A stretch of DNA of 63,238 nt, filler included, from Candidatus Rokuibacteriota bacterium (lineage in GTDB: Bacteria > JAUVQV01 > DATDCY01): the NCBI GenBank assembly GCA_031406795.1. It is 10 parts of 10 records of this genome, joined end to end, with 100 filler letters (N's around TTAATTAATTAA, not from the genome) between each part and the next. Parts side by side here need not be neighbours in the genome. Positions count along the whole stretch, not along the records: positions 25,107 to 41,957 come from JANOHV010000214.1; 9 more parts are not named here. One strand, written 5' to 3'. Shown here in pieces: positions 25,833-42,057 of the stretch. How positions within the stretch are numbered: position 1 is the stretch's first letter; each line of letters begins with the position of its first letter. The notes beneath the pieces were generated by a model. The model had not been told where the DNA came from, made no database searches, and saw only the letters and a program-made list of their open reading frames with translations. Made by a program: the position numbers and the translations under genes.

Positions 25833-27265
25833 GTCGTCCCCCCGGGATTGTCCTCGAGGGTGACCCCCCGTTCGAGCAACTCCTGGCGGACCCGGTCGGC
25901 GGCCGCGAAGTCGCGCGCCGCGCGGGCTGCCGCACGCTCGGCGATCTTGCCCTCGACCCAGGCCGCATCGACGTCTGCGGCGAGGCCGGCCTGCTCGAGC
26001 GAGCGCAGGCGCGCGGCCCATTCCGGAGGGGCGCTCGTGAAGAGTCCGAGCACCTCGCCGATCCGGCGCACTGCGCCGACGAATCCCGCAAGCGTCGCGC
26101 GGTCCAGGCCGCCCCCGCGGGCCAGAGCCCCGGAGACGGCGCGCATCGCCTTGAAGACCTCGCCGATCGCGCCGGCGGTATTGAAATCGTCGTCCATCGC
26201 CTCGCGGAAACTCTCGTCGAGCCGCGCGACCGCGGCGGCTGCCTCCGCATCGCGCGGTCCGTCCGCGTCCGCGGCGGCGAGCGCGTCCGCCTCCTCGATG
26301 AGCCGGTAGATCCGGTCGAGCGTCCGCGTCGCGTCCGTAAGCTGCTGGTCGGAAAAATCGATCGGCGAGCGGTAGTGCGTCCCGAGCAGGAAGAAACGCA
26401 GCGCTTCGGCGTCGAATTTCTTCAGCACGTCGCGGATCGTGAAGAAGTTGCCGAGGGACTTGGACATCTTCTCGTGGTTCACGTTCACGAACCCGTTGTG
26501 CATCCAGATCCGGACGAATGGCCGGCCGGTGAGCGCCTCGGTCTGGGCGATCTCGTTCTCGTGGTGCGGGAAGGCCAGATCCTTGCCGCCGCCGTGCAGG
26601 TCGAGCTCGGGCCCGAGGTGCTTCATCGCCATCGCGGAACACTCGATGTGCCACCCCGGCCGCCCCGGACCCCACGGGCTCTCCCACCAGGGCTCGCCGG
26701 GCTTGGAGGACTTCCAGAGGGCGAAGTCCATCGGGTCCTCCTTGCGCTGGTCGACCTCGACGCGGGCGCCGGCGAGCATCTCCTCGAGGTCGCGGTGCCC
26801 GAGCTCCCCGTAGGCGGGAAACGACTTGACCCGGAAGTAGACGTCGCCATCGACGGCGTAGGCCTTGCCCTTTTCCACGAGGGCGGCAACCAGCGCGACG
26901 ATCTCGGCGATGTGGTCGGTGGCCTTGGGCTCGACATCGGCCGGCCGCACGCCAAGCGCGGTCATGTCGACGACGTACTCGCGGATGTAGGTCTCCGCCA
27001 GCTCCTGCCAGGGCAGGCCGCGCTCCGCCGCGCGCTTGATGATCTTGTCGTCGATGTCGGTGTAGTTGCGCACGTAGTTCACCTGGAACCCGGCGTAGGC
27101 GAGGTACCGGCGCACGACGTCGAAGACCAGCGCACCGCGGCCGTGGCCGAGATGGCTCAGGTCGTACACGGTCACGCCGCAGACGTACATGCCGACGCGC
27201 GGGGGGGCAATCGGGACGAAGTCCTCCTTGCGGCCGGTCCGGGTATTGAAGATGCGCAGCGTCAT
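25811..27265 (-). CDS. cysS: Cysteine--tRNA ligase
   Basis: MYVCGVTVYD, HLGH, PGWHIECSAM, FPHHENE, KMSKS. Confidence 0.98.
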   Translation of the reverse strand: MTLRIFNTRTGRKEDFVPIAPPRVGMYVCGVTVYDLSHLGHGRGALVFDVVRRYLAYAGFQVNYVRNYTDIDDKIIKRAAERGLPWQELAETYIREYVVDMTALGVRPADVEPKATDHIAEIVALVAALVEKGKAYAVDGDVYFRVKSFPAYGELGHRDLEEMLAGARVEVDQRKEDPMDFALWKSSKPGEPWWESPWGPGRPGWHIECSAMAMKHLGPELDLHGGGKDLAFPHHENEIAQTEALTGRPFVRIWMHNGFVNVNHEKMSKSLGNFFTIRDVLKKFDAEALRFFLLGTHYRSPIDFSDQQLTDATRTLDRIYRLIEEADALAAADADGPRDAEAAAAVARLDESFREAMDDDFNTAGAIGEVFKAMRAVSGALARGGGLDRATLAGFVGAVRRIGEVLGLFTSAPPEWAARLRSLEQAGLAADVDAAWVEGKIAERAAARAARDFAAADRVRQELLERGVTLEDNPGGTTWRLKKA

Positions 27266-27292
27266 GATAGGGTGGTTATCATACCCGAGGGG

Positions 27293-27347
27293 CGAAAAAG
27301 GGGACAGATTTATTTTTCCTACAAAAATAAATCTGTCCCCTTTTTCG
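27293..27347. repeat. AT-rich REP-like palindrome (family C)
   Basis: Perfect 25-bp arms CGAAAAAGGGGACAGATTTATTTTT with a 5-nt loop; related copy at 33029-33080 and a half copy at 60985-61006. Confidence 0.9.
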
Positions 27348-27396
27348 GTGCCCCTCGCGATTTACTCCTTGCCTCCGCGGCGCCTGTGGCCTGACA

Positions 27397-27903
27397 ATGC
27401 GCGCAATGCGTCACTGGTATGTGGTTCAGAGCAAGCCCCAGCAGGCGGATCGGGTCGCGGTTCAACTCGAGGAACTCCTCGCCATCGAGGTCTACAACCC
27501 GAGGATCGAGGTGCGCGTCGTGCGGGGCATCCACAAGACGACGCAGATCAAGCCGCTGTTCCCGAACTACCTCTTCGCCCGGCTCGAGCTGCCGGGGGAA
27601 TGGAAGACGATCACGTTCACCCGCGGCGTGGCCCGCGTGCTCGGCGGCTGGGAGGACCCGCGCTCCGTCGACGACGCGGTCGTCGCCGCCATCCGCACCC
27701 AGGAGCGCCGCAAGGATCGCCTGATCGCCTACTACCGTTTCAAGCCCCGGGAGCGGGTCGTGGTGCGCTCGGGGCCCTTCAAGGACATCCACGGCATCTT
27801 CGAGCGGTACGTCGACGAAGGGGAGCGGGTGCGCATCTTGCTGTCGCTGATCGGTTACGACGCCTCGGTTGAACTTGAGTCCGAGCAGGTGGCGAAACTG
27901 TGA
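27397..27903 (+). CDS. NusG paralog (RfaH/UpxY/LoaP-like antiterminator)
   Basis: WYVVQSKP, PLFPNYLF (NGN domain), SGPFKDIHG (KOW); not in the secE-nusG-rplK context. Confidence 0.85.
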   Translation: MRAMRHWYVVQSKPQQADRVAVQLEELLAIEVYNPRIEVRVVRGIHKTTQIKPLFPNYLFARLELPGEWKTITFTRGVARVLGGWEDPRSVDDAVVAAIRTQERRKDRLIAYYRFKPRERVVVRSGPFKDIHGIFERYVDEGERVRILLSLIGYDASVELESEQVAKL

Positions 27904-28778
27904 CGACGGCGGTCGCGATCCTCAGGAGCACGCGTCCGGCCCAGTGGCTGAAGAACGTCCTGGTCTTCGCGCCGCTGATCTTCGCGCACCAGGCGCTCGA
28001 ACGCCACGCCCTGCTGCGCTCGCTGGCGGTCTTCGGCCTCTTCTGCCTCGCCTCGGGAGCGGTGTACCTCGTCAACGACCTGCTCGACCGCGCCAGCGAC
28101 CGCGGGCACCCCGTGAAGCGCCGCAGGCCAATCGCCTGCGGCGAGCTGTCCCCGGTCGCAGCGGGGGCGGCCGCGGCACTGCTCGGCTTCGGGGCGATCG
28201 CCGTCGCGGCGCTGCTGGACCGGCGCGTCGCGTTCGTCCTCGGGGTCTACCTGCTCGTCAACCTGCTCTACTCGCGCGTGCTCAAACACCTGGTCATCCT
28301 CGACGTCATGACGATCGCCGCCGGCTTCGTGCTGCGGGTGGTCGCCGGGGGCATCGCCGTCGGCGTCGCGCTCTCCTCGTGGCTGCTGCTGTGCACCTCG
28401 CTGCTGGCGCTGTTTCTCGGTTTCGGCAAGCGCCGCCACGAACTGGTGCTGCTTGAGGTCAACGCCTCCACCCACCGGCCGATCCTCTCCGAGTACAGCC
28501 CCTATTTCCTGGACCAGCTGATCGCGGTGGTCACGACCTCCACGCTCGTGACCTACGCGCTCTACACGATGGATCCGCTCGTGCAGCAGAAGCTCGGCAC
28601 GCCCTACCTGCCGCTGACCATCCCGTTCGTGCTCTACGGGATCTTCCGCTACCTCTATCTCGTGCACCAGAAGCAGGAGGGCGGCGACCCGTCGCAGATC
28701 ATCTTCAACGACAAGCCGCTGCTGCTGAACGTCCTCCTCTGGGCCGCCACGGTCTTCTTCATCCTGTATTTCAGTTAG
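27900..28778 (+). CDS. UbiA-family decaprenyl-phosphate phosphoribosyltransferase-like protein
   Basis: RPAQWLKN, YLVNDLLD...HPVKRRRPIA, KRRHEL; multi-TM. Confidence 0.88.
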   Translation: MTTAVAILRSTRPAQWLKNVLVFAPLIFAHQALERHALLRSLAVFGLFCLASGAVYLVNDLLDRASDRGHPVKRRRPIACGELSPVAAGAAAALLGFGAIAVAALLDRRVAFVLGVYLLVNLLYSRVLKHLVILDVMTIAAGFVLRVVAGGIAVGVALSSWLLLCTSLLALFLGFGKRRHELVLLEVNASTHRPILSEYSPYFLDQLIAVVTTSTLVTYALYTMDPLVQQKLGTPYLPLTIPFVLYGIFRYLYLVHQKQEGGDPSQIIFNDKPLLLNVLLWAATVFFILYFS

Positions 28779-29317
28779 CCCGGGTCGGCTGGGAGGCCCT
28801 GACGCGCCCTGGCGGCGTTGCGGACCGGGTTGCTTGTGCGGCGGGCACGAGCCCTCCTCCGCGCACCCTTCCCGCTGCCTTGCCAGGACGCGTCAGGACG
28901 CTCCCAGCCGACTCGGGCAGCACGTGAACGGGAACGCCCGGGAACGTTACCGGGACGTTGACGTTGCCCTCGCTTCGCTGGGCGATGCCGCCGGGCCGAT
29001 CGTCTTCCGTGGCCAGTTCCATTGCCCAGCGAAGCGCGGGCGATGAGACGCCGCACGGGAATTGCGACCTCGCGACATTGCCCGGCGAAGCGAGGACGAC
29101 GACCCCGAAGTCATCGCCCAGCGAAGCGAGGCAACGCCCCCGACATGGCCCCAGTCCATCGGCAATTGACTGCCCGAGTCGGCCGGGAGCGTCCTGATGC
29201 GTCCTGGCAAGGCAGCGCCGAGCGCGCGCGGAGGCGCACTCGTGTGCGCCGCACAAGCGACGCGAGAAGCAACGCGGCCAGGGCGCATCAGGGCCTCCCC
29301 GCCGACCCGGGCTGACG
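28776..29317. repeat. Composite repeat: inverted ~145-bp structured units (28776-28921, 29170-29317) flanking four ~22-nt GCCCAGCGAAGCG units
   Basis: Direct alignment of left unit with the reverse complement of the right unit; short units at about 28963, 29021, 29077 and 29113. Confidence 0.85.
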
Positions 29318-29318
29318 G

Positions 29319-30884
29319 TTAACGGTTGACGCGGCGGCGCGCTAGGGCGAGGACAGAGGTGAGTTCTTCGCTGCCGAGCAGGCGGCTGGCGCCGCAGTAG
29401 ATTGCAATGCAGAGCGACGCGGTCCCGGCGAAGAGCGCCGTCTTCAGCGCGGTGTGGCCGCCGGCCTCCCAGAGTTGCCCGCGCAGCAGCGCCCAGCCGA
29501 CCAGACCCATCAGCGCCGCGGCGGCCGCGGTGCGCAGCAGCGAGCGCGCGATCCTCCCGGTCTCGATGCGGCCGAGCCGTCGACGCAGCAGGAGAAAGAG
29601 CGCCGTGAAGTTCGCCATGGAGGCGCAGGCGTTCGCGAGGGCCAGCCCGGCGTGGGCCAGCGGCCCCATCAGCGCCAGGCTCAGCGCGAGGTTCACGAGC
29701 ATCGTCGCCATGCCGACGCGCACCGGCGTCCGCGTGTCCTGCAGCGCGTAGAAGGTCGCCGTGACCACCCGCACGCCGACCACGGCCCAGATGCCGAACG
29801 CGTAGCAGAGCAACGCCTGGGCCGTCCCCGCGGCGGCGGCCTCGTCGAAGCGTCCGCGCAGGAACAGCAGGTTGACGATCGGCCCCCGCAGCGCGATGAG
29901 CCCCGCCATCGCCGGGACGGTGATGAAGAAGAGCAGCCGCAGCGCGTACGAGAAATCCTCCCGCAGCCGCTCGGTCTCGCCGCGCGCCGCGTGCTCGGAG
30001 AGCGCGGGGAGCACCGCCATGCCCATGGCCACGCCGAAGATGCCGATCGGGAATTGAATCAGCCGCATCGAGTAGTACAGGTACGTGATGCTCCCCTGCG
30101 CCAGGTACGAGGCGAGGATGTTGCTGACGAAGATATTGACCTGCGCGACTGCCATCCCCAGCGTCGCGGGCAGCAACAGCACGCCCATGCGCCTGAGGCC
30201 CGGGTGCCCGAAGCGGAACGACGGCACGAGCGAGTAGCCGGCGCGGAGAAAGGAGGGGAGCTGGAAGGCCAGTTGCGCGCCCCCGCCGATCGCGACGCCC
30301 ACCGCGACCGCGGCGATGGCGGGACTCACCCGGCCGGCGAGCAGGGGCACCGCGGCGATCCAGACCGCGTTGAACACGGCCGACGCCAGCGCCGGCACGA
30401 AGAAAACCCGACGCGTGTTGAGGGCCCCCATGACGAGCGCCGCGAGACTGACAAACAGCAGAAAAGGGAACATGATCCGCGTCATCAGCACCGTCAACGC
30501 GAGTTTCTCCGGGTCGGCGCGAAAGCCCGGCGCGATCGCGACCACGATCTCGGGGGCGAAGAGCACGCCGAGTGCGCAGACTGTGCCGACGAGCAGGAAC
30601 ATGAAGGTCAGCGCCGCGCGCACGAGTCGGGTCGCCTCCGCCTTCCCCTCCGCCGCCTCGACCCGGGAGAGCACCGGCACGAAGGCCGAGGACATGGACC
30701 CCTCCGCGAAGAGTTCGCGCAGCAGGTTCGGAATCCGGAAGGCGACGAAGAAGGTATCCGAGGCCCCCGCCGCGCCGAAGAAGCTCGCGAGCGTCATGTC
30801 CCGGACAAAACCGAGAATCCGGCTGATGAGCGTAGCGGCCGACATCACGCCGGCGGCCTTCGCGATCCGACCCTGGCTCCCCAT
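29319..30884 (-). CDS. murJ: Lipid II flippase MurJ (MviN)
   Basis: SRILGFVRD, AFRIPNLLRELFAEG, RLIQFPIGIFGVA, FYALQDTRTP. Confidence 0.96.
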   Translation of the reverse strand: MGSQGRIAKAAGVMSAATLISRILGFVRDMTLASFFGAAGASDTFFVAFRIPNLLRELFAEGSMSSAFVPVLSRVEAAEGKAEATRLVRAALTFMFLLVGTVCALGVLFAPEIVVAIAPGFRADPEKLALTVLMTRIMFPFLLFVSLAALVMGALNTRRVFFVPALASAVFNAVWIAAVPLLAGRVSPAIAAVAVGVAIGGGAQLAFQLPSFLRAGYSLVPSFRFGHPGLRRMGVLLLPATLGMAVAQVNIFVSNILASYLAQGSITYLYYSMRLIQFPIGIFGVAMGMAVLPALSEHAARGETERLREDFSYALRLLFFITVPAMAGLIALRGPIVNLLFLRGRFDEAAAAGTAQALLCYAFGIWAVVGVRVVTATFYALQDTRTPVRVGMATMLVNLALSLALMGPLAHAGLALANACASMANFTALFLLLRRRLGRIETGRIARSLLRTAAAAALMGLVGWALLRGQLWEAGGHTALKTALFAGTASLCIAIYCGASRLLGSEELTSVLALARRRVNR

Positions 30885-30943
30885 GGGGCGCGATTCTAGC
30901 ACGCGCGATTGACTCGCCGCCGCGCTGCAGGTAGGAATACCTC

Positions 30944-33028
30944 ATGGTTCCCCACGCCGCGGCGATCTTCCTTTCGGCCTTCCTGCTGTTTCAAGTCCAG
31001 CCGCTGGCCGGCAAGGAACTCCTCCCCTGGTTCGGCGGCAGCGCCGCGGTCTGGTCGGCCTGCCTGCTCTTCTTCCAGGCCGTGCTCTTTCTCGGCTATC
31101 TCTACGCGCACCTTATCGGGACGCGCCTTGCGCCGCGCCGCCAGGGGATCGTGCACCTGGCGCTGCTCGCGATCGCCCTCGCCTTCCTGCCGATCGCCGC
31201 CGGCGCGGCCTGGAAGCCCCCCGACCAGTCGCTGCCCGTCCCGAGGATCCTGGCCTTTCTCGCCGCGACGCTCGGCCTGCCGTATTTCCTGCTCTCGGCG
31301 AACGGGCCGCTGCTCCAGCGCTGGTACACGCTGCGCTCTCCCGGCGCTCCGTGGCGCCTGTACGCGCTGTCGAACGCCGGTTCGCTGCTCGGGCTGCTCT
31401 CCTACCCCGTCCTCGTCGAACCGTTCCTCTCGCTCGGCGCCCAGCGGCTGCTCTGGTCCGCCGGGTACGCGGCGTTCGTGGCCGCCGCCGCCGCCTGCGC
31501 CTTCGGACTCGTCCGCGCCGCCCCGCCGCTGCCGCCGGCACCGCCCGATCAGCGCGGATCGCCCGGGAGCCGCGACTCCGGCGCGGGCTGGACGGCTCTC
31601 GTGCTGGCGCTGTCGCTCACCGGCTCGCTGCTGATGGCCGCGACGACGCACTACCTGTGCCAGCACGTCGCGGTCATCCCGCTGCTCTGGATTCTCCCCC
31701 TCGCACTCTACCTGGTGAGCTTCATCGTCGTGTTCGCCGGCGATCGCTGGTACCGGCGCGGCCTGATGATCCCGCTCCTCGCCACAGCCACGATCGCCGC
31801 GACCGCGACGCTGTTCCTCGGTTTTCGCATCAGCCTCCCCGCACGCATCCTGGTGCTGCTCGCGCACCTCTTCGTCGGCTGCCTGGTGTTGCACGGCGAA
31901 ATGGCGCGCCTCAAGCCGGCGCCGCGACGGCTCACCGGCTACTATCTGCTGCTCTCGGCCGGCGGGGCGCTCGGGACGGCGTTCGTGACCTTCCTGGCGC
32001 CGGCGCTCTTCTCGGGGTACTGGGAGTACCACGTCGCGCTCGCCACCTGCTGGGGATTGACGCTGGTCGCGGTGCTGCGGGACGCCCGCGCGGCGCGGCA
32101 GCCGGGGCGTTCGAAGGCCGCACTGGTCGCCGGCCTCGCCAGCCTCCTGGCGCTCGTCGTCACGCTGCGCTGGGACACACTCGTCGTCATGGCTCAGACC
32201 GTGCACGCCGAGCGCAATTTCTACGGGGCGCTCCAGGTGATCGAGCGCGACGCCGACGATCCGGGCCGGCACCGCTTCGAGCTGACCAACGGGGGCATCC
32301 TGCACGGCGCGCAGTTCACCGACCCGCGGCTGCGGCGCCGCCCGACGGTCTACTTCGGGCCGTCGAGCGGGCTGGCCGCGGGCCTGCGCTCCGCCCGGGA
32401 GACGGCGCGCGCCGGCGGCGGGACGGGCGGGCTGCGCATCGGCTGCATCGGCCTGGGAGTCGGCGTGATCGCCGCGCACACGATCCCCGGCGACGAGTTG
32501 CGCTACTACGAGCTGAACCCGGACGTGGAGCGCGTGGCGCGAAGATACTTCAGCTTTCTCGCCGATGCCCCGGGAGCCACCACGGTCATCCTCGGGGACG
32601 CTCGCCTCTCGCTGGAGCGGGAGCTGGCCGCGGGCGGCCCGCGCCGTTTCGACGTCTTCGTCGTGGATGCCTTCACCGGCGACGCCATCCCCGCCCACCT
32701 GCTGACGCGCGAATGCCTCCAACTCTACCTGGCGCACCTCGCGCCGGGCGGACGGCTGCTGCTGCACATCAGCAACCGTTACCTGGACTTGCGCCCGGTC
32801 GTGCTCGCTCTGGCGCGCGACGCCGGCCTCGAGGCGATCGTCATGGACAGCCGTCCGGCCGACGTCTCCGAATTGCCCGCCACCTGGGCCGCCATCGCGC
32901 GAAGCGGCTTCTTCTCCGCCGAGGAACGCGCGATGGCCGCGGCGTCGCGGCCGCCATTCACCGGCCGGCTGGCGCTCTGGACGGACGAATACAGCACCCT
33001 CTTCAACCTGCTCTTCCGAGGTGAGTGA
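30944..33028 (+). CDS. Multi-TM membrane protein fused to a spermidine-synthase-like SAM-binding domain
   Basis: FLSAFLLFQVQP...LYALSNAGSLLGL; RNFYG, LHGAQ, IGLGVG, YELNP, GDARLSL, DAFTGDAIP, WTDEYS. Confidence 0.85.
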   Translation: MVPHAAAIFLSAFLLFQVQPLAGKELLPWFGGSAAVWSACLLFFQAVLFLGYLYAHLIGTRLAPRRQGIVHLALLAIALAFLPIAAGAAWKPPDQSLPVPRILAFLAATLGLPYFLLSANGPLLQRWYTLRSPGAPWRLYALSNAGSLLGLLSYPVLVEPFLSLGAQRLLWSAGYAAFVAAAAACAFGLVRAAPPLPPAPPDQRGSPGSRDSGAGWTALVLALSLTGSLLMAATTHYLCQHVAVIPLLWILPLALYLVSFIVVFAGDRWYRRGLMIPLLATATIAATATLFLGFRISLPARILVLLAHLFVGCLVLHGEMARLKPAPRRLTGYYLLLSAGGALGTAFVTFLAPALFSGYWEYHVALATCWGLTLVAVLRDARAARQPGRSKAALVAGLASLLALVVTLRWDTLVVMAQTVHAERNFYGALQVIERDADDPGRHRFELTNGGILHGAQFTDPRLRRRPTVYFGPSSGLAAGLRSARETARAGGGTGGLRIGCIGLGVGVIAAHTIPGDELRYYELNPDVERVARRYFSFLADAPGATTVILGDARLSLERELAAGGPRRFDVFVVDAFTGDAIPAHLLTRECLQLYLAHLAPGGRLLLHISNRYLDLRPVVLALARDAGLEAIVMDSRPADVSELPATWAAIARSGFFSAEERAMAAASRPPFTGRLALWTDEYSTLFNLLFRGE

Positions 33029-33080
33029 GAAATGGGGACAGATTTATTTTTGCGTTTGAAAATAAATCTGTCCCCATTTC
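33029..33080. repeat. REP-like palindrome (family C) overlapping a CDS start
   Basis: 22-bp arms GAAATGGGGACAGATTTATTTT with an 8-nt loop. Confidence 0.9.
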
Positions 33081-33982
33081 TGTTCCTTGCAACCGCCCTG
33101 CCGGTTCTGGCCGTCCTCACGCTGTCGCCTCGGCCGGCACGGTGCACGGAGGAGTACTCGGCCTGCACCGGTCGGCCCTGTGCGCACTGCCACCAGAGCC
33201 CCGCCGGCGGCGGCGAGCTCACGGCGCGCGGCGCCTCCTTCGAGCAGGCCGTCGCGGCGGAGCGCGGCGCCGTGCCCGCCGCCGCGCTCCGCCGTTACGG
33301 CCGGGCTGCTGTTCTCTTCGTCCACATCGTGACCGCCTTCTTCTGGTTCGGGACGATCCTGTACGTCCATCTGATCCTCAAGCCGGCCTACGCCGCGCAA
33401 GGTCTGCCCCGTGGCGAACTGCGCCTCGGCTGGGCCGGTATCATCTCGATCGCCGTCACCGGCACCATCCTCACGCTGCTGCGGGTGGACTCCTGGCAGA
33501 CGCTTTTCCATTCCCGTTTCGGCGTGCTGCTCTGCATCAAGATCGCTCTCTTCCTGGTCATGGCGGCCACGGCCTTGCTGGTGACCTTTGTCATCGGGCC
33601 GCGGCTGGGCAGGCCCCGGGCCCGCAAGGCCCACCCCGGCCGAGGCGAATTCACGCCGGAGGAACTCGCCCTCTTCGACGGCCGCGAGGGACGGCAGGCA
33701 TTTGTCGGGTACCGCGGCAAAGTCTACGATCTCTCGGCGAGCGGGATGTGGGGGGGAGGCGCGCACATGCAGCGGCACGCGGCGGGGAACGACCTGACGC
33801 CGGCGATCACTCAGGCGCCGCACGGCGAGGAGAAACTCGCGGCCTTCCCGATGGTCGGTGCGCTCGTTCCCTCCCTCGGCGAACAGCACCCCCCGATCGT
33901 GCGTCGCTTCTTCTTCATGGCCTATCTGAACCTGGGGATCGTCGTCGCCGTCCTGCTCGTCATCACCCTCTGGCGCATGTAA
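33032..33982 (+). CDS. Membrane protein with a c-type heme motif, CopD-like TM region and cytochrome b5-like domain
   Basis: Signal-like N-terminus, CAHCH, TM helices with HIVTAFFWFG, and FTPEELALFDG...KVYDLS...HMQRHAAGNDLT. Confidence 0.75.
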   Translation: MGTDLFLRLKINLSPFLFLATALPVLAVLTLSPRPARCTEEYSACTGRPCAHCHQSPAGGGELTARGASFEQAVAAERGAVPAAALRRYGRAAVLFVHIVTAFFWFGTILYVHLILKPAYAAQGLPRGELRLGWAGIISIAVTGTILTLLRVDSWQTLFHSRFGVLLCIKIALFLVMAATALLVTFVIGPRLGRPRARKAHPGRGEFTPEELALFDGREGRQAFVGYRGKVYDLSASGMWGGGAHMQRHAAGNDLTPAITQAPHGEEKLAAFPMVGALVPSLGEQHPPIVRRFFFMAYLNLGIVVAVLLVITLWRM

Positions 33983-33983
33983 C

Positions 33984-34235
33984 GGGCGCTGAAAAGGGCC
34001 CAGCTGCGGCGTTGGGCGAATCCCTCCTCACTGCGGCGCACCGAGTGCGCCTCATTCGTCGGGTCTTCGCCCGCCTTGCACCTGGACCCTTTTGAGCACC
34101 CTCTCCGCGACTGTTACGGGCGCTGAAAAGGGCCCATCTGCGGCGTTGCCCTCCTCCCGACTCACTGCGGCGGCCACCAGGCCGCCTCATTCGCCGGTCG
34201 TCAGGCGCCTTGCACCTGGACCCTTTTGAGCACCC
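33984..34235 (+). repeat. Two tandem copies of structured MITE-like family A (33984-34101, 34118-34235)
   Basis: Terminal inverted repeats GGGCGCTGAAAAGGGCCCA...TGGACCCTTTTGAGCACCC with nested internal stems. Confidence 0.88.
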
Positions 34236-34362
34236 TCTCCGTCCCGGGCGGGCTCACGAAACTCGCTCGTCGTTGTGGAAATCCGCATGCAGATGATGCG
34301 CTGCCGGCTGTCTGCATCCGGAACCAACTCGAAAGAACGCGTAGACGGCTAACGCGAGTCTG

Positions 34363-34490
34363 AATCGTCGCGGCGAGATTTTTCGTTCCGGCAAGGCGCC
34401 GCCGGAGTGAGCGCGGAGGCGTACTGCAGTACGCCGCACAAGCGAACGAGGTGGCAACGCCGCCGGGGCGGAAAAGATCCCGCGACGATC
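34363..34490 (-). repeat. Family A-related element in inverted orientation with different termini
   Basis: Core GCAAGGCG...GAGGCGTACTGCAGTACGCCGCA...CAACGCCGC enclosed by ATCGTCGCGG...CCGCGACGAT. Confidence 0.7.
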
Positions 34491-34827
34491 AGACTCGGCC
34501 GAAGTCGTCGGCGAGGCGCTCGATGTCGTCTTCGCCGAAATAGTCCCCGCGCTGCACCTCGATGAAGACCACGGCGAGCTCGCCCGAGTTGTGAACGCGG
34601 TGCGTGGCCCCGCAGTGGATGTTCACCGAATCGCCGGGGCCCAGCTCGACGTCCTGGCCGTCCACGCTGACCACCGCCTGACCGGCGACCATGTGCCAGT
34701 GCTCACTGCGGCGACGGTGGCGCTGCAGCGATAGTCGCTTGCCGGGATGGACGGTGATCCGCTTGACCTTGTGGTCGGGGGCATCCGCGAGAATTTCGTA
34801 GAAGCCCCACGGACGGTGTTCTTCCAT
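34489..34827 (-). CDS. Cupin, mannose-6-phosphate isomerase type II C-terminal-like
   Basis: RPWGFY, KRLSLQRHRRRSEHW, IEVQRGDYFGEDDIERLADD. Confidence 0.88.
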   Translation of the reverse strand: MEEHRPWGFYEILADAPDHKVKRITVHPGKRLSLQRHRRRSEHWHMVAGQAVVSVDGQDVELGPGDSVNIHCGATHRVHNSGELAVVFIEVQRGDYFGEDDIERLADDFGRV

Positions 34828-34866
34828 GTCCGACACGGTAGCACGGCAGCGCGCAAACAGACAAGA

Positions 34867-35074
34867 CCCAGATCCGCGCGTAACGCGCGGATCCAGCAGC
34901 AGAGGAGGCATTTCAACCGCCGAAATGCAGGATTTCTTGCAGGAAGCATGGTGTGACAGAGGTCAAGCATCGCTTGAAGCATGCATTGCGATCAGATATG
35001 AGCAACGACTTGGATAATCCGGACCAGGTGACAAGCCTGACTCTCCTGATCCGCGCGTTACGCGCGGATTTGGG
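34867..35074. repeat. Inverted pair of GATCCGCGCG-TAA-CGCGCGGAT palindromes (REP doublet-like)
   Basis: Palindromes at 34871-34893 and 35048-35069 in opposite orientations, with an AT-richer spacer of about 150 nt. Confidence 0.75.
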
Positions 35075-35089
35075 ACAAGATGCCCGGTC

Positions 35090-35119
35090 TTGACATACGG
35101 TAGGGGGGTACCCTATATT
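35090..35119 (+). promoter_or_regulatory. Sigma70 promoter with an embedded CsoR-type operator
   Basis: TTGACA-18 nt-TATATT; the spacer holds TACGGTAGGGGGGTA (TAC...G-tract...GTA), directly upstream of csoR. Confidence 0.7.
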
Positions 35120-35131
35120 CGTGGCGCGACT

Positions 35132-35416
35132 ATGGCGACGACAGAAGACGAGGTACGCGAGGGGGCGCTGGCCCGGCTCAACCGGATCGAGGGACAGGTC
35201 CGCGGCGTCCGGCGCATGATCGAGGAGGGCCGCGCCTGCGCCGAGGTCCTCCCGCAGCTGCGCTCGGTCATCAACGCCCTGTGTCGCGTCCAGGACCACG
35301 TGCTGCATCAGCACCTGCGCCGCTGCGTGCGCGAGAGCTTCGAGGCCGGCGTCGAGGAGCGCGACCGCAAGACCGACGAGATCTTTCTGTTGTTGAACCG
35401 CTACCGGGAACCCTAG
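35132..35416 (+). CDS. csoR: Copper-sensing repressor CsoR
   Basis: RLNRIEGQVRGVRRMIEEGRACAEV...HLRRC (Cys-His-Cys Cu(I) ligands); upstream of a Cu ATPase. Confidence 0.9.
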   Translation: MATTEDEVREGALARLNRIEGQVRGVRRMIEEGRACAEVLPQLRSVINALCRVQDHVLHQHLRRCVRESFEAGVEERDRKTDEIFLLLNRYREP

Positions 35417-35424
35417 GAGGAGTC

Positions 35425-35595
35425 ATGGAAAATTACGGTTGGATCGCCCTGCTCGCCGTCTGGGTCGTTTTCACGCTCGTGCGCGGCGGCAGCGGCGGCG
35501 GCTGAGGCGCCGCGCCCCGGGACCCCGGTCGGGGTCCGGCAACAGGATCGGCCGCGGCGAAGAAGTGCGGGAAGCGAGGCGGTGACGGTGCCTGA
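35425..35595 (+). CDS. Predicted 56-aa single-TM selenoprotein (Sec27); 26-aa peptide if UGA terminates
   Basis: AGGAGG RBS overlapping the csoR stop; [66 protein letters not shown]-like hairpin after the first TGA; second stop overlaps the copA start. Confidence 0.7.
35520..35537 (+). promoter_or_regulatory. SECIS-like hairpin
   Basis: GGACCCC-GGTC-GGGGTCC, loop starting 21 nt after the UGA at 35503-35505; same stem length and loop as the hdrA SECIS; no U-tract. Confidence 0.7.
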
Positions 35596-37870
35596 TCGGG
35601 AGGCAGCCGGCGCGCCGCAGCCCGTCCCCGCCGGCGGCCTGACCATCGCCGTCGGGGGGATGCACTGCGCGGCCTGCGTGGCCGCCGTCGAGCGCGCGCT
35701 GGAAAAGGTCGATGGCGTCAGCGATGCCCGGGTGAACTTCGCCTCGGGCAAGGCGAGCGTGGATTTCGACCCGCAGGCGGTCACCCTCGCCAGTCTGGAG
35801 GCGGCGATCCGCGACGCCGGCTACGAACCTCTGATCGAAGCTGCGGGCGCACCCGCCGGCGAGACCGCCGACCGCGAGCAGCAGACACGCCGGCGCGAGA
35901 TGGCCGCGCTTCGTTTTCAGTTCCTCGTCTCGGCCGTTCTCGGCCTGCCGCTGCTCTGGCTGGGCATGGGATCTCATCTGCAACTGCCGCTGCCGCAGCT
36001 CTCCAACGCCACGATGGCGCTGCTTCAGTTCCTGCTGGCGACGCCGATCCTCGCCGTCAACTACCAGTTTTACACCCGCGGCATCCTCGCCGTCGTCAAG
36101 ACCCGCACGTCGACCATGGACACGCTGGTCGCGCTCGGCACCGGCGTGGCCTGGCTCGATAGCGTCGTCGTCTCGGTCTTCATCTGGACGGGCCGGGCGG
36201 GCTATCACGCCCACCAGCTCTACTTCGAGACCGCCGGGGTCCTGCTGGCGTTCATCGTGCTCGGCAAGTGGCTCGAAGCGATCGCCCGCGGCAAGACCTC
36301 CGAGGCGATCCGCGCGCTGATGGGACTGGCGGCGCGCACCGCCGTCGTCGTGCGCGACGGCCTCGAAATCGAGATCCCCGTCGAGCAGGTGGCCGTCGGC
36401 GACATCGTGCTCGTCCGCCCCGGCCAGAAAGTGCCGGTCGACGGCACCGTGGTCGAGGGGCACTCCAGCATCGACGAGTCGATGCTCACCGGGGAGAGCA
36501 TCCCGATCGAGAAAAGCGTCGGCGACCGCGTGACCGGCGCCACGTTGAACAAGAGCGGCGCGTTCCGTTTCCGCGCCGAGCGCATCGGCCGCGACACCGC
36601 GCTCGCGCAGATCGTCCGGCTCGTCGAGCAGGCGCAGGGCTCGAAGGCGCCGATTCAGGCGCTGGCCGACCGGGTCGCCGCTGTCTTCGTCCCGGTCGTC
36701 GTCACGACGGCCTTTCTGGCCTTCGGCTTCTGGATGCTCGCGGGCTTCGGTTTCGCCTTCGCGTTCAAGATCCTGATCGCCGTGCTCGTCATCGCCTGTC
36801 CCTGCGCGCTCGGACTGGCGACGCCGACGGCGGTCATGGTCGGCACCGGCCTCGGCGCGAAGAACGGCATCCTGATCAAGAGCGCCGAGGCGCTGCAGCG
36901 CGCACACGCGGTGACGACCGTCGTCTTCGACAAGACCGGCACGCTGACCCGCGGCGCTCCCGAACTGACCGACGTGGTGGCCCTCGGCGACGTCGGCGAG
37001 GACGACCTGCTGCGCTTCGCCGCGGGCGTCGAGAAGCTCTCCGAACACCCGCTCGCGGATGCCGTGGTCCGGGGCGCGACGGCGCGCGGCCACGCGATCC
37101 CGGCGGCCGCGCACTTCAAGTCGGTCGCCGGCAAGGGGGTACGCGCGATGATCGAGGGGCGCGAGGTGGTCCTCGGCAACCGCGCGCTGATGAGCGAACT
37201 CAACTTCGACGTCGCGGCGGCCGAGACGCGGCTCGCGGCGCTCGAGGAGGCGGGACGTACGGCGGTTCTGGTCGGCGTCGCGGGGCGGCTCGCGGGGCTC
37301 GTCGCCGTCGCCGACACCGTCAAGCCTCACGCCCGCGAGGCCATCGACGCGCTGCGGCGACTCGGCAAGGCGGTCGTGATGATCACCGGCGACAACCGGC
37401 GTACCGGCGAGGCGATCGGCCGGTTGCTCGGCATCGACCGCGTGCTCGCCGAGGTGCGCCCCGAGGGGAAGGCCGCCGAGATCAAGGCGCTGCAAGCCGC
37501 CGGCGAGCGCGTGGCGATGGTCGGCGACGGCATCAACGACGCGCCGGCGCTGAGCCAGGCCGACATCGGCATCGCGATCGGGACCGGCACCGACGTGGCG
37601 ATCGAGTCCGGAGACATCGTGCTGATCCGCGACGACCTGCGCGACGTGGTGACGGCGATCGACCTCTCGCGCGCCACGATGCGCACCATCAAGCAGAACC
37701 TTTTCTGGGCTTTCTTCTACAACAGCATCGGCATTCCGATCGCGGCGGGCGCCCTCTACAAGCTCGGCTTCCTGCTCAACCCGATGATCGGCGGGGCCGC
37801 CATGGCCTTCTCCTCGGTCAGCGTCGTGACCAACTCGCTGCTGCTGCGGAGGTACCGCCGGCCGCTGTAG
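35582..37870 (+). CDS. copA: P1B-1 Cu(I)-exporting ATPase
   Basis: [44 protein letters not shown] and MAFSS motifs. Alternative GTG start at 35588. Confidence 0.93.
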
Positions 37871-37894
37871 CCGGGGGAGCGCGGAGATCTCCTG

Positions 37895-38473
37895 ATGCAG
37901 CGCGCGCACCGAAGTTCGCTCGCCGCCGGGGCGCTGCTGATCCTGCTCGCGTGCGGCGGCGGCGCGTCGGCCACGGAACGTCCCGCAACGTGGGCGCAGC
38001 CGGTGCCCCTCGCCGGCGCCCCGAACCTCCACAAGGTCAGCGACACCCTGTATCGCAGCGCGCAGCCGACTGCCGCGGGGATGCTGAATCTCAGGCGGCT
38101 CGGCGTCAAGACCGTGGTCAGCCTGCGCGCCTTTCACTCGGATCGCGCCGACACGCAGAAGGCCGGCCTCGGGTACGAGCACATCTTCATGAAGACCTGG
38201 CACCCGGAGGCGGAAGATGTCGTGCGCTTCCTGAAGATCGCGACGGACCCGGCCCGCTCGCCGGTGCTCGTGCACTGCCAGCACGGCGCGGACCGCACGG
38301 GCACCCTGGTGGCGATCTACCGCGTCGTCGTGCAGGGCTGGACGAAGCGCGCGGCTATCGACGAGATGACCGGCGGCGGGTTCGGCTTCCACACGGTCTG
38401 GAAAAACCTGCCCCCCTGGATCGAGAAGCTCGACATCGCGGCGCTCAAGACCCAACTCGCGACAAGACAATGA
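37895..38473 (+). CDS. Exported tyrosine/dual-specificity phosphatase-like protein
   Basis: LYRSAQP, HCQHGADRTG (CX5R); signal/lipoprotein-like N-terminus LLILLAC. Confidence 0.85.
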   Translation: MQRAHRSSLAAGALLILLACGGGASATERPATWAQPVPLAGAPNLHKVSDTLYRSAQPTAAGMLNLRRLGVKTVVSLRAFHSDRADTQKAGLGYEHIFMKTWHPEAEDVVRFLKIATDPARSPVLVHCQHGADRTGTLVAIYRVVVQGWTKRAAIDEMTGGGFGFHTVWKNLPPWIEKLDIAALKTQLATRQ

Positions 38474-39312
38474 CCGTGAACGCCCGTCGCGCCTGGTCGT
38501 CCTTGTTCTTCGCACTGTGCGCCGTCACCGGCGCGCTGGCGCTCGCATTCACCGGGCGCGAGACGATCCACTGGCAGGAGTTGAGCACGCCGCTTCTGCT
38601 CGGCACCATCGCGCTCGCCGCAGCGGTGCTTCTGCACGCCTGGTTGACCACTTCGGCGAGGAACGCGCTGCTCTTTTTCCTGCTGGCGACCGGCATCTCG
38701 CTGGCGGCCGAATACGCAGGGATTCGCTGGGGTTTCCCCTTCGGCGCGCGATTCCGGTATCACCCGGACCTGCGCCTCCGGCTGTTCGGCCTCGTGCCGC
38801 TCTTCATCCCCCTCGCGTGGATGGTGCTCGCGTACATCCCCATCGTGCAGCTGCGGCAGTGGCCTCGGGAGAACCAGCGCCCGCGCCTGTCCATGGCGCT
38901 GAAGGCCGTCACGGCGGCCGCGATGCTGTGCGTTGCCGACCTCACGCTCGATCCTCTCGCCGTTGCGGTGGGGGCCTGGACCTGGGAGCAACCAGGCGCC
39001 TATTACGGCATCCCCGCGGGCAATTTCCTGGGCTGGCTTCTCGTCGGGTTCGTCATCTTTGGCTGTTATTTCGCGCTGGAGCGACCGACGGCCTCCCGCT
39101 CCGCGAGCGCCACCTTCGTCTACGACCGGCACCTCATCGCCGTGTCTCTGTACCTGATCGGCGTCGGGCAGCTCGCGCTGCTGCGGCACGTGCCCGGCGC
39201 GCACTGGATCACGTTGATCACCGTGGTGACGGTCGCCCCGGGCTTGTACTTCTGGGTGTCGCGTCGGCGCCAGGGGCCTCCCGAGCTTGACAGTCCGTCA
39301 CCCGACCCCTAA
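38470..39312 (+). CDS. CruF/DUF422 'carotenoid biosynthesis' family membrane protein
   Basis: AEYAGIRWGFPFG...GLVPLFIPLAW...DLTLDPLAV...WTW...YYGIPAGNFLGW. Confidence 0.75.
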   Translation: MTVNARRAWSSLFFALCAVTGALALAFTGRETIHWQELSTPLLLGTIALAAAVLLHAWLTTSARNALLFFLLATGISLAAEYAGIRWGFPFGARFRYHPDLRLRLFGLVPLFIPLAWMVLAYIPIVQLRQWPRENQRPRLSMALKAVTAAAMLCVADLTLDPLAVAVGAWTWEQPGAYYGIPAGNFLGWLLVGFVIFGCYFALERPTASRSASATFVYDRHLIAVSLYLIGVGQLALLRHVPGAHWITLITVVTVAPGLYFWVSRRRQGPPELDSPSPDP

Positions 39313-39405
39313 GGTTCGTCGGTGGAGAGCTCCGGATCGTCACGTCGCACCGACAGGGAGGCCGTTCATGACACCCACCCGCCCCATCGTGCGCGTGAAT
39401 CGGTA

Positions 39406-41646
39406 ATGGCCGCGGCGCGCGAACCCCTCGCCTTCTTCGCCACCTGCCCCAAAGGCCTCGAGGGGCTGCTTGCCGCCGAACTCGCCGGCTTCGACGCCGC
39501 GGAGATCAAGGAGACCGTGGCCGGGGTCGCCTTCACCGCCACCCTCGAGATCGCCTACCGGGCCTGCCTCTGGTCGCGGCTGGCGTCGCGGATCCTGATG
39601 ACCGTGCGCGTCGTGCCCGCGGCGGACGCCGCCACCCTGTACGCCGGGGTCCACGAGATCCCCTGGGAGCAGCACCTGGGCCCGGACGGCACGCTGGCCG
39701 TGGACTTCACCGGCACCAGCGAGCAGATCACCCATACGCTCTTCGGGGCGCAGAAGGTCAAGGACGCGGTCGTCGACCGCTTTCGCGAGCGCGACGGACG
39801 GCGGCCTTCCGTCGACTTGAGGAACCCCGACGCGCGCATCAACGTGCACCTGGCCGGCGCCGAAGCCCGCGTCTCGCTCGACCTCTCGGGCGAGAGCCTG
39901 CACAAGCGCGGCTACCGCGACGAGAGCGTCGAGGCGCCGCTGAAGGAGAACCTGGCGGCCGCGATACTGATCCGCGCCGGCTGGCCGGCGATCGCGGCGG
40001 CGGGCGGCCCCCTGCTCGACCCGATGTGCGGTTCGGGGACGATCACGATCGAGGCGGCGCTGATCGCGGGCGACATCGCCCCCGGTTTGCTGCGCGAATC
40101 CTTCGGCTTTCTGCGCTGGCCGCGGCACAACGCCCCTCTCTGGGAGCGGCTGCTCACCGAGGCCGGCGCTCGCCGCGAGGCGGGGCTGCGGCAGTTCCCC
40201 GCCATCGTCGGCACCGACCGCGACCCGTCGGCGGTGCGCGCCGCCCTCGCCAACGTCGCGCGCGCCGGCCTCACGGGCCGCATCCACATCGAGAGACGCG
40301 AACTCGCCGACACTGTGCCGCCCAAGAGCCGCTCCGGCGCCGCGGGCCTCCTCGCGACCAACCCGCCGTACGGCCAGCGCCTCGGCTCCGAGACGGAGCT
40401 GCGCCCGCTCTACGAGACGATCGGCGTCGTGCTGCGGGAGCGCTTCGCGGGCTGGAAGGCCGCGCTTCTCACCGGCAACCCGGGACTCGCGCTGCGCACC
40501 GGCATCCGCGCGACGAAGTCCTACACGCTGTTCAACGGCGCGCTCGAGTGCCGCCTGTTCATCCTGGAGGTGACGCCCGAGCGCTTCATGCGCGCCTCGA
40601 AACCGAAGACGCCCGCCGTCCCCGAGGCGGTGAGCGCGCACTCCGTGGGCGTGGATTCGAGCCCCGCAGCTCCTCTGAGCGGCGAAATCGCCGAGTCCCT
40701 CGCCAACCGCCTGCGCAAGAACCTCAAGTCCCTCGGGTCGTGGGCGCGTCGCGAGGGGATCAGCTGCTACCGGCTCTACGACGCGGACATGCCGGAGTAT
40801 GCGGTCGCGGTCGATCTCTACCGCGTGGATGATGAAGCTCCCGGTACACTCTGGGCCGTCGTGCAGGAGTACGAGGCGCCGAAGACGGTCGACCCGGAGA
40901 AGGCGCGCACCCGGCTCGCCGGCGCCGTGGCGGCGGTCGGCGCCACGCTCGAATTGCCGCCCGAGCGGGTCGTGCTGAAGATTCGCCGGCAGCGCCGGGG
41001 CCGGGAGCAGCACGAGAAGCTCGGCGACGAGCGCGAATTCCATCGCGTCGGGGAAGCCGGCCTCGCCTTGCAGGTGAACTTCACGGACTATCTCGACACC
41101 GGGCTCTTCCTCGACACGCGGCCGGTGCGCGCGCTGCTGCGCACGCTGGCCGCGGAGAAGGATTTCCTGAACCTCTTCTGCTACACCGGGACCGCGAGCG
41201 TCGCCGCCGCAGCCGGCGGCGCGCGCTCGACGGTTTCGGTCGATCTCTCGCAGACCTACCTCGGCTGGGCGGAGCGCAACCTGAAGCTCAACGGCTTCGG
41301 CGGCCGGGCGCACGAACTGGCCCGCGGCGACTGCCGGGAGTGGCTGCGCCGGGAGCGCCGCCGCTTCGGGCTGATCTATCTCGACCCGCCGGCATTTTCG
41401 ACCTCCAACGCGATGCGCGGGACGCTCGACATCCAGCGCGACCACGTGCCGCTGCTGCTCGACGCCGCCGGCCTGCTCGAACCGGGCGGCACGCTGATCT
41501 TCTGCACCAACCTGCGCCGCTTCAAGCTCGACGCCGCGGCGATGCCGGCCCTCGCCTTCGAGGACATCACCCGCGCGACGATCCCGAAGGACTTTGCCGG
41601 CAACCCCCGCATCCACGCCTGCTGGTCCGTCCGCGGAAGGTCCTGA
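39406..41646 (+). CDS. rlmKL: Bifunctional 23S rRNA m2G2445/m7G2069 methyltransferase
   Basis: THUMP region, SLHKRGYR, DPMCGSGT, NPPYG, DYLDTGLFLD, LNLFCYTG, DPPAFS. Confidence 0.95.
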   Translation: MAAAREPLAFFATCPKGLEGLLAAELAGFDAAEIKETVAGVAFTATLEIAYRACLWSRLASRILMTVRVVPAADAATLYAGVHEIPWEQHLGPDGTLAVDFTGTSEQITHTLFGAQKVKDAVVDRFRERDGRRPSVDLRNPDARINVHLAGAEARVSLDLSGESLHKRGYRDESVEAPLKENLAAAILIRAGWPAIAAAGGPLLDPMCGSGTITIEAALIAGDIAPGLLRESFGFLRWPRHNAPLWERLLTEAGARREAGLRQFPAIVGTDRDPSAVRAALANVARAGLTGRIHIERRELADTVPPKSRSGAAGLLATNPPYGQRLGSETELRPLYETIGVVLRERFAGWKAALLTGNPGLALRTGIRATKSYTLFNGALECRLFILEVTPERFMRASKPKTPAVPEAVSAHSVGVDSSPAAPLSGEIAESLANRLRKNLKSLGSWARREGISCYRLYDADMPEYAVAVDLYRVDDEAPGTLWAVVQEYEAPKTVDPEKARTRLAGAVAAVGATLELPPERVVLKIRRQRRGREQHEKLGDEREFHRVGEAGLALQVNFTDYLDTGLFLDTRPVRALLRTLAAEKDFLNLFCYTGTASVAAAAGGARSTVSVDLSQTYLGWAERNLKLNGFGGRAHELARGDCREWLRRERRRFGLIYLDPPAFSTSNAMRGTLDIQRDHVPLLLDAAGLLEPGGTLIFCTNLRRFKLDAAAMPALAFEDITRATIPKDFAGNPRIHACWSVRGRS

Positions 41647-41682
41647 GAAGGCCGCTTGATTCCGGTTTTCCGAAGAATTTAC

Positions 41683-41711
41683 TTGACGATCCTGCCGAGT
41701 CTCCCTATGAT
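41683..41711 (+). promoter_or_regulatory. Sigma70 promoter of the tRNA pair
   Basis: TTGACG-17 nt-TATGAT, ending 14 nt before tRNA-Val. Confidence 0.75.
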
Positions 41712-41725
41712 CCGCTGCGTGACTG

Positions 41726-41801
41726 GGGCGGTTAGCTCAGCTGGGAGAGCATCTGTCTTACACACAGAAGGTCACAAGTTCGAGCCTTGTACCGCCCACC
41801 A
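41726..41801 (+). tRNA. tRNA-Val(TAC)
   Basis: GGGCGGT/ACCGCCC acceptor stem, anticodon arm TCTGT-CTTACAC-ACAGA, GTTCGAG T-loop, encoded CCA. Confidence 0.97.
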
Positions 41802-41818
41802 GCTCGAGGGAAGAATGC

Positions 41819-41895
41819 GGGGCCGTAGTTAAGTTGGTTATAACGCCGGCCTGTCAAGCCGGAGGGCGCGGGTTCGAGTCCCGTCGGCCCCGCCA
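41819..41895 (+). tRNA. tRNA-Asp(GTC)
   Basis: GGGGCCG/CGGCCCC acceptor stem, CCGGC-CTGTCAA-GCCGG anticodon arm, GTTCGAG T-loop, encoded CCA. Confidence 0.97.
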
Positions 41896-42057
41896 ATCTT
41901 CCCGTGCGATGACAAGCACTTACGAGCGATGACGGAACGCCTGTAACCAAATGGCCANNNNNNNNNNNNNNNNNNNNNNNNNNNNNNNNNNNNNNNNNNN
42001 NTTAATTAATTAANNNNNNNNNNNNNNNNNNNNNNNNNNNNNNNNNNNNNNNNNNNN

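Follow-up and report, generated by a model that had tools for sequence, protein, structure and literature searches.

Does the copper-resistance operon formed by csoR and copA in Candidatus Rokuibacteriota bacterium (GenBank assembly GCA_031406795.1) encode a selenocysteine (Sec)-containing peptide between its two recognizable genes, or does the short open reading frame (ORF) located there end at its first UGA? The question was raised by a preliminary description of a 63,238-nucleotide stretch of this genome, hereafter designated the window, which consists of 10 parts joined by filler. The csoR-copA locus lies in the part derived from JANOHV010000214.1 (positions 25,107–41,957). According to that description, a small ORF begins on a ribosome-binding site that overlaps the csoR stop codon, encodes a hydrophobic segment, encounters an in-frame TGA followed by a hairpin that resembles a bacterial Sec insertion sequence (SECIS) and, if read through, extends into the start of copA. 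Our analysis confirms the observation itself and partly supports the Sec interpretation. Judging from comparison of the sequences, we consider it somewhat probable that UGA 35503 is read as Sec by way of the downstream hairpin, and the csoR-copA operon probably holds a third, hidden gene for a membrane-anchored Sec peptide of 53–56 residues.

Conservation is counted throughout this report in four sequences, namely the window and three metagenome contigs (L081, L082, and L083). The elements of the locus on which the argument depends are as follows.

35132–35416 (+), csoR, 94 amino acids, ATG 35132, stop codon TAG 35414–35416 (Pfam PF02583, E 6.8e-23)
35415–35420 (+), AGGAGG ribosome-binding site of the small ORF, overlapping the csoR stop codon, 4 nt 5' of the ATG, present in four of four sequences
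35425–35502 (+), N-terminal part of the small ORF, 26 codons from ATG 35425, encoding a helix followed by R and a Gly-rich linker
35503–35505 (+), in-frame TGA, proposed Sec27, TGA in all four full sequences
35506–35592 (+), proposed read-through extension, 29 codons (87 nt), no indel or stop in four of four sequences
35520–35537 (+), proposed SECIS GGACCCC-GGTC-GGGGTCC, 7-bp stem and GGUC loop, beginning 14 nt 3' of the TGA
35588–35595 (+), GTGCCTGA, in which the copA GTG overlaps the read-through stop TGA 35593–35595, four of four sequences
35588–37870 (+), copA, Cu(I)-exporting P1B-type ATPase with one N-terminal HMA domain (Pfam, NCBIfam)

Results

A SECIS-like hairpin follows the in-frame UGA

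The AGGAGG, the ATG, the hydrophobic ORF, and the in-frame TGA at 35503–35505 all occupy the positions previously assigned to them. The hairpin is present at 35520–35537 and its loop begins at 35527, 21 nt past the TGA, as had been claimed. The predicted 56-residue read-through product of the window sequence was reproduced exactly, and its stop codon, TGA 35593–35595, falls inside GTGCCTGA and thus overlaps the copA start. The hydrophobic helix spans approximately residues 4–19 and is followed by R and a Gly-rich linker of 4–6 residues. Beyond the TGA, the extension consists of 11 residues whose codons span the hairpin, then a linker that varies, and then a conserved tail, AKKCGK(K/R)GG, with Cys48. 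The extension has no in-frame ATG, GTG, or TTG after TGA 35503, so it could be translated by read-through alone.

A second gene in the window provides a point of reference for the hairpin.

1650–1690 (−), hdrA Sec codon TGA 1690–1688 with SECIS 1667–1650, reference element in the window

The hdrA gene (2311–2, minus strand) contains an in-frame TGA at 1690–1688 in the context ...TMDCSIU ILGPKM..., and the residue at this position, U208, faces the Cys of ...DCSIC... in the solved HdrA 5odc_A (phmmer, E 5e-228). This alignment identifies hdrA as a genuine Sec-HdrA gene and indicates that the organism decodes UGA as Sec. The hdrA SECIS, GGATGCC-GGTC-GGCATCC (minus strand, 1667–1650), matches the small-ORF hairpin at 14 of 18 bases. 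The two elements share a 7-bp stem, a GGUC loop read in the same in-frame GGU-CGG phase (features already recognized in the preliminary description), GGA..CC/GG..UCC ends, and a UGA distance in the allowed range. They differ in two central pairs, in UGA-to-loop spacing (27 nt for hdrA vs 21 nt for the small ORF), and in their host genes, which are unrelated. The stem had been described as different from that of hdrA, a claim that does not hold: five of the seven pairs are identical, and the two that differ (UG/CA in hdrA vs CC/GG here) are changed on both sides and are therefore compensatory.

The pattern GGANNCCGGTCGGNNTCC has two sites in the window, which are these two hairpins, and none in 100 shuffles, a result whose significance is overstated because the pattern was derived after both sites had been seen. 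Among 83 fetched loci, the pattern occurs in the three relatives only. The window contains six GGTC-loop hairpins with a stem of at least 6 bp, and just these two follow a TGA at which an open frame terminates; the TGAs of the other hairpins were checked by hand and are out of frame with the local long ORF.

The available text of a review sets out a bacterial SECIS (bSECIS) model with a loop of 3–9 nt, G in the first two places, a stem of 4–16 bp, a distance of 16–37 nt from the UGA, and a minimum free energy of −7.5 kcal/mol or below (PMC13188914). The small-ORF hairpin lies within these limits (4-nt loop, 7 bp, 21 nt, −13.7 kcal/mol), which form a loose model. Folded alone, the hairpin has a z score of −2.2 and is equalled by 7 of 200 shuffles; in its 76-nt context the z score is −0.65 and 47 of 200 shuffles are equally stable, which is unremarkable at 68% GC. 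RNAfold predicts a longer helix around the hairpin in the window. This helix was rejected, as it is absent from the relatives, which keep the 7-bp stem alone. A role for the hairpin as an intrinsic terminator was likewise rejected, since it is followed by no T-run and the region 34950–35750 contains no terminator-like site.

The product of hdrA (2–2311, minus strand) carries a fused MvhD-like domain at its C-terminal end, and residues 673–769 of the protein match the MvhD chains of solved complexes. The adjacent ORF (2366–3625, minus strand) contains 4Fe-4S and CCG domains and is HdrC/B-like.

The small ORF and its extension are conserved in close relatives

A metagenome scan with an alignment of the N-terminal part identified the three contigs L081–L083; an earlier scan with the 56-residue form had matched 597 stretches, none of which was confirmed. 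CopA and RlmKL of L081 are 92% and 85% identical to their counterparts in the window, values measured for L081 only. The relatives had been expected to bear on the fate of the UGA. In all three, the short ORF closes with TGA rather than TAA or TAG, and an identical hairpin follows at equal distance; protein searches revealed no Cys homologue aligned to the UGA. Thus, of the proposal that the UGA is recoded through a SECIS, the TGA, the hairpin, the open frame, and (see below) the coding pattern have stood, and the anticipated Cys homologues have not appeared.

Further analysis of the four sequences revealed that the TGA, the identical hairpin 14 nt behind it, the open 87-nt extension free of indels, and the stop codon in GTGCCTGA are kept in every one. 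The short ORF measures 26, 25, 24, and 25 codons, the differences being whole codons inside the Gly run, and replacements within the conserved hydrophobic helix are conservative. The csoR leader contains indels among the same four sequences where the extension has none. The second copA codon is CCT in four of four. Across 12 coding stretches of the window, CCT specifies 15 of 294 Pro residues; retention of this rare codon fits selection for the overlapping TGA. Contigs from three public runs (X4, X5, and X6) cover the TGA unchanged; they are short and none spans the whole extension. An X4 contig from an RNA library covers 35147–35529, a coverage that is no proof of transcription.

These data bear on the possibility that nothing is translated here, i.e., that a structured intercistronic spacer of 170 nt happens to contain a chance ORF. 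Spurious ORFs abound in this GC-rich window. A scan for further in-frame TGAs returned 193 candidates and is uninformative in such DNA. Pfam and NCBIfam scans with the peptide carrying C in place of U matched no family at E values up to 1. A chance ORF would not account for the AGGAGG found 4 nt before the ATG in all four sequences, for length changes in whole codons, for the conserved hydrophobic helix, or for a gene-typical composition: the G+C content of the N-terminal part is 0.85–0.92 at third codon positions (GC3; genome 0.91) and 0.46–0.50 at second positions (GC2), as in other genes of the window. We regard an untranslated spacer as highly improbable.

The extension shows a coding signal in the read-through frame

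The ratio of nonsynonymous to synonymous polymorphism (pN/pS) in the extension, summed over the six pairs of sequences, is 0.42 in the read-through frame vs 1.57 and 1.54 in the other frames. Stop codons among the four sequences number zero in the read-through frame and two and one in the others. In the last 13 codons, the ratio falls to 0.24 vs 4.25 and 1.37. For comparison, pN/pS is 0.25 for the last 80 codons of csoR and 0.47 for the N-terminal 20 codons of the small ORF. When alignment columns were shuffled over the full 87 nt, 30 of 2000 trials reached the observed ratio. The corresponding counts are 75 of 2000 for the stretch of 54 nt past the hairpin and 22 of 2000 when the last 39 nt are considered by themselves. 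The stretch that encodes AAKKCGK contains four variable columns, all of which are third positions. These results argue, with moderate strength, that the extension evolves like coding sequence in the read-through frame only.

A constraint of another kind appears within the hairpin. None of its six third codon positions varies, as opposed to 13 of the 23 that lie outside it in the extension (Fisher p 0.017). Invariant third positions in the hairpin together with variable ones in the remainder fit an RNA constraint laid over a coding frame.

Read-through product or plain micropeptide

The principal alternative holds that the ORF stops at the UGA and yields a one-helix micropeptide of 24–26 residues, for example an accessory subunit or regulator of CopA, and that the hairpin is an unrelated RNA element such as an mRNA stabilizer, a processing site, or a control of copA initiation. 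KdpF and sarcolipin are precedents, being small subunits with one helix that associate with P-type ATPases. Several observations are in accord with this explanation. TGA is the commonest stop codon (7 of 10 complete genes sampled), so its conservation in close kin is to be expected, and an open frame past a stop is not rare at 68% GC. Coding composition is normal in the N-terminal part but not in the tail, and the searches revealed no Cys homologue of the long form. Public metagenome annotation called precisely such a short product, a 25-residue protein designated P0005.

The following results weigh against Sec insertion. A phmmer search of 1.84 billion representative proteins with the C-for-U peptide found the truncated P0005 only, and word-indexed searches of proteins of 29–98 residues, with a single sequence or the four-sequence alignment, found none. 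The four sequences represent a single shallow clade, and conservation of the TGA and hairpin could reflect recency. The coding statistics are of moderate strength, resting as they do on 87 nt in four close kin. The GC3 of the extension is 0.62–0.76 vs 0.91 for the genome, unlike the usual coding composition, and the tail is of low complexity (G/A/P/K/R). Each of the third-position changes in AAKKCGK is a G/A transition, and the purine-rich tract where they occur could have a second function in the initiation of copA. RNAalifold detected no compensatory change in the hairpin within the four sequences. If the calculation also takes in third positions from csoR and the N-terminal part, six invariant sites would arise with a chance of 0.088. 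The window contains no tRNA-Sec; a scan of the whole window with Rfam gathering thresholds returned two tRNAs and nothing else. Rfam scans by E value around both hairpins gave chance matches only, a result without power here because the genuine hdrA SECIS was missed as well.

A plain micropeptide would nevertheless leave four sets of observations to coincidence. These are the match of 14 of 18 bases with the hdrA SECIS, including the GGUC loop and its phase; the pN/pS of 0.42 compared with about 1.5 in the other frames, together with the shuffle tests; a fast-changing stretch of 87 nt without indels next to a csoR leader that has them; and the exact overlap of the stop codon with the copA start, where the rare codon CCT is kept in all four sequences. 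On balance, we consider a peptide that ends at the UGA possible, if rather unlikely. Should it be correct, the operon would contain a conserved, uncharacterized one-helix peptide of 24–26 residues before the copper pump, a more ordinary accessory gene.

An intermediate explanation assigns the hairpin to SelB and not to productive Sec insertion: copA translation or mRNA fate would be tuned by selenium status. The translation of the E. coli sel operon is controlled by a SECIS-like element, and the hairpin, which is similar to the SECIS used by the organism itself, precedes the copA start by 50 nt. This arrangement would leave unexplained the coding-type pattern and the open, indel-free frame past the hairpin, as well as the position of the element at the proper SECIS distance behind an in-frame UGA. 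Moreover, we know of no biological reason for tying copper export to selenium. We consider this form of regulation very unlikely.

Operon control and the copA start

Two elements upstream of csoR, which overlap each other, are relevant to the regulation of the operon.

35090–35119 (+), sigma-70-type promoter (TTGACA, 18 nt, TATATT), 11 of 12 hexamer matches
35096–35110 (+), predicted CsoR operator, TAC-N9-GTA with G-tract

Promoter-like sites of this quality occur at a mean of 0.1 in shuffled sequences, and the real site is kept in four of four. The site at 35096–35110 obeys the rule 5'-TACX9GTA-3' given for CsoR operators in the available part of PMC3902906.

The presence of this operator raises the possibility that the 18-bp palindrome behind the small ORF acts as DNA, namely as a second, internal CsoR operator that serves as a roadblock or in looping before copA. 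Its core, ACCCC-N4-GGGGT, is like the G-tract pseudopalindromes of CsoR sites as depicted in the accessible portion of PMC3902906, and strict conservation without covariation is the pattern of a protein-binding DNA site. However, the palindrome reads GAC-N10-GTC and lacks the TAC/GTA dyad, whereas the promoter site reads TAC-N9-GTA; as far as the available text of the Streptomyces lividans study goes, that dyad is indispensable (PMC3902906). An operator would also render coincidental the GGTC center, the GG/CC ends, and the location behind an in-frame TGA. Of the explanations considered here, we find this one the least probable.

The copA product matches Pfam E1-E2_ATPase, Hydrolase, and HMA as well as NCBIfam TIGR01511 (620 bits). 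ORF listing places the first copA start at GTG 35582; the sole start kept in four of four sequences is GTG 35588. Its own Shine-Dalgarno-like sequence is weak (AGG or AAGG approximately 10–12 nt upstream). csoR and copA share a reading frame, and no stop codon separates the csoR TAG from copA. The intervening frame (35417–35587) contains no ATG, GTG, or TTG before 35582, and its openness probably reflects mere GC richness. In L081 only, the copA frame has a further ATG (position 2826), 36 nt ahead of the conserved GTG; ORF listing from this ATG gives a 772-residue CopA.

A model for the small-ORF product

We propose the following route by which a Sec-containing product would be made and used. 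Ribosomes would start at ATG 35425 on the strong AGGAGG site and make a short membrane anchor followed by the Gly-rich linker. At UGA 35503, the GGUC-loop hairpin 14 nt downstream would recruit SelB with Sec-tRNA(Sec), which would cause Sec to be inserted at codon 27. Translation of 29 further codons would then end at the UGA inside GTGCCTGA, where the terminating ribosome could re-start on the copA GTG. The helix would lie in the membrane with its R/K-rich tail in the cytoplasm, as the positive-inside rule and the acidic N-terminal end suggest. Sec27 and Cys48, of which the latter is invariant, both lie in flexible segments rich in Gly, Ala, and Lys and may bind Cu(I) near CopA. The layout of the locus, its conservation, the coding-type pattern past the UGA, and the use of Sec by the organism are supported directly by the sequences; Sec insertion, topology, copper binding, and translational coupling are steps that we infer.

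Our best guess, and a plausible one, is that the peptide serves as a tethered Cu(I) chaperone or buffer at the membrane beside CopA. The preliminary description had likewise suggested that it could be a Cu(I) chaperone or sink, or could couple copA translation to selenium. A more ambitious version would combine three elements: a selenoprotein family that has no Cys-containing relatives; a Sec27/Cys48 pair that hands Cu(I) to CopA; and SelB-dependent read-through that feeds the copA start, making pump output partly dependent on selenium. As a whole, we hold this version to be tentative and unlikely. A metallochaperone of the CopZ/HMA type, with an HMA fold and an MxCxxC motif, was considered and rejected, as the peptide matches neither PF00403 nor the NCBIfam CopZ model at E values up to 1 in scans where the N-terminus of CopA hits HMA at 2e-18.

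Searches for wider relatives and neighboring genes

From a CsoR search of a genome collection, 80 loci were kept; the best among the matches listed are 51–56% identical. Comparison of the peptide with these 80 csoR loci by tblastn gave low-complexity noise at one GC-rich locus. In 10 of the 80, an ORF of 15–90 residues with a hydrophobic run starts within 100 nt after csoR, and none of these is like the small ORF. One locus (L079, from an unrelated Rhodospirillaceae metagenome-assembled genome) has a 55-residue ORF after csoR (4309–4476, plus strand) that shows no sequence likeness and is built from one hydrophobic helix, a GGGG run, and a His-rich tail (…HLFGGGGLAHMIDHSGLEQHHASP). By analogy, it may be a tethered metal-binding micropeptide of the same general kind.

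A search for a close genome by means of RlmKL found at best 59% identity over the full length among 401 genomes of one class, and 58–59% in one order (12 genomes) and in a 151-genome sample of another. The tally of 401 includes two unpublished genomes (G044 and G301) on which no claim rests. A blastn search of a plasmid collection returned two short, irrelevant matches.

In L081, rlmKL directly follows copA (5141) with overlapping stop and start codons. The two genes are separated in the window by an insertion (37895–39320) that comprises a phosphatase-like ORF with an HCxxGxxR motif and an ORF for a membrane protein. Two genes upstream of csoR, the gene at 33032–33982 (plus strand) encodes a CxxCH-like N-terminal part followed by a weak CopD-like membrane domain (42.5 bits, cut-off 195) and may be another copper-related gene. 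At its start, which coincides with the end of the ORF at 30944–33028, lies an AT-rich hairpin of approximately 23 bp (33022–33080, plus strand, −32.7 kcal/mol) that stands out in a window of 68% GC. Runs of N occur in the window at about 17609 and about 41958.

Discussion

The small ORF is a candidate for a new selenoprotein family that uses a known recoding mechanism. If its UGA encodes Sec, the product would rank among the smallest bacterial selenoproteins and the gene would contain a compact natural UGA-SECIS cassette of approximately 35 nt. The use of Sec as a metal ligand would be extended to a micropeptide partner of a P-type ATPase. Within the accessible parts of the sources cited here, it would be the first membrane-anchored selenopeptide that we have found described inside a csoR-copA copper-efflux operon. 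It would also be a rare selenoprotein without Cys homologues and as such would be missed by the strategies, described in the available text of one review, that search for Cys/Sec pairs (PMC13188914). Full-text searches and the family tables of PMC13188914 disclosed no selenopeptide of a csoR-copA operon, although the supplementary lists of PMC12013277 and PMC13188914 may hold the family. The families termed hypothetical protein DG/DW/DF belong to other organisms and, in the portion of the report available, all have Cys homologues (PMC12013277).

Sec has been predicted in several proteins of metal handling, which in the available text include HMA proteins with a UxxU motif (NF041115, UxxU_metal_bind), CopZ-family proteins, E1-E2 ATPases, MerT, and the SO_0444 Cu/Zn exporters (PMC13188914). 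The small-ORF peptide resembles these proteins in the predicted use of Sec as a soft ligand, in its metal-resistance context, and in the bacterial SECIS behind the UGA. These families have known folds, U/C-x-x-C/U motifs, and abundant Cys homologues. The peptide described here, in contrast, matches none of their models. It consists of one helix and a tail that looks disordered, 21 residues separate its Sec from its Cys, and the searches revealed no relatives in Cys form.

SaoC and KCU-star/DUF466 are small selenoproteins encoded beside transporters (10.1101/2022.07.06.499078). Like the small-ORF product, they are tiny, adjoin a transporter, and have database entries truncated at the UGA; according to the accessible part of that report, they were accepted mainly because the UGA is followed by a 7-bp stem whose loop contains G. 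Their Sec lies at or near the C-terminus in a CU motif, and Cys-Cys homologues exist (10.1101/2022.07.06.499078). In the peptide considered here, 29 residues follow the Sec and a membrane anchor precedes it, and there is no sequence similarity to either family.

The size and location of the gene also invite comparison with systems in which no selenium is involved, and this comparison applies whether translation ends at the UGA or continues to copA. KdpF of KdpFABC, as well as sarcolipin and phospholamban of SERCA, are single-helix accessory peptides of P-type ATPases that have no Sec or Cys ligands and require no recoding. They bear no sequence relation to the small-ORF peptide, which differs from them in its proposed Sec and Cys ligands and in recoding. 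With KdpF, however, it shares an arrangement in which the gene for a small one-helix peptide (25–56 residues) immediately precedes that for a P-type ATPase within one operon.

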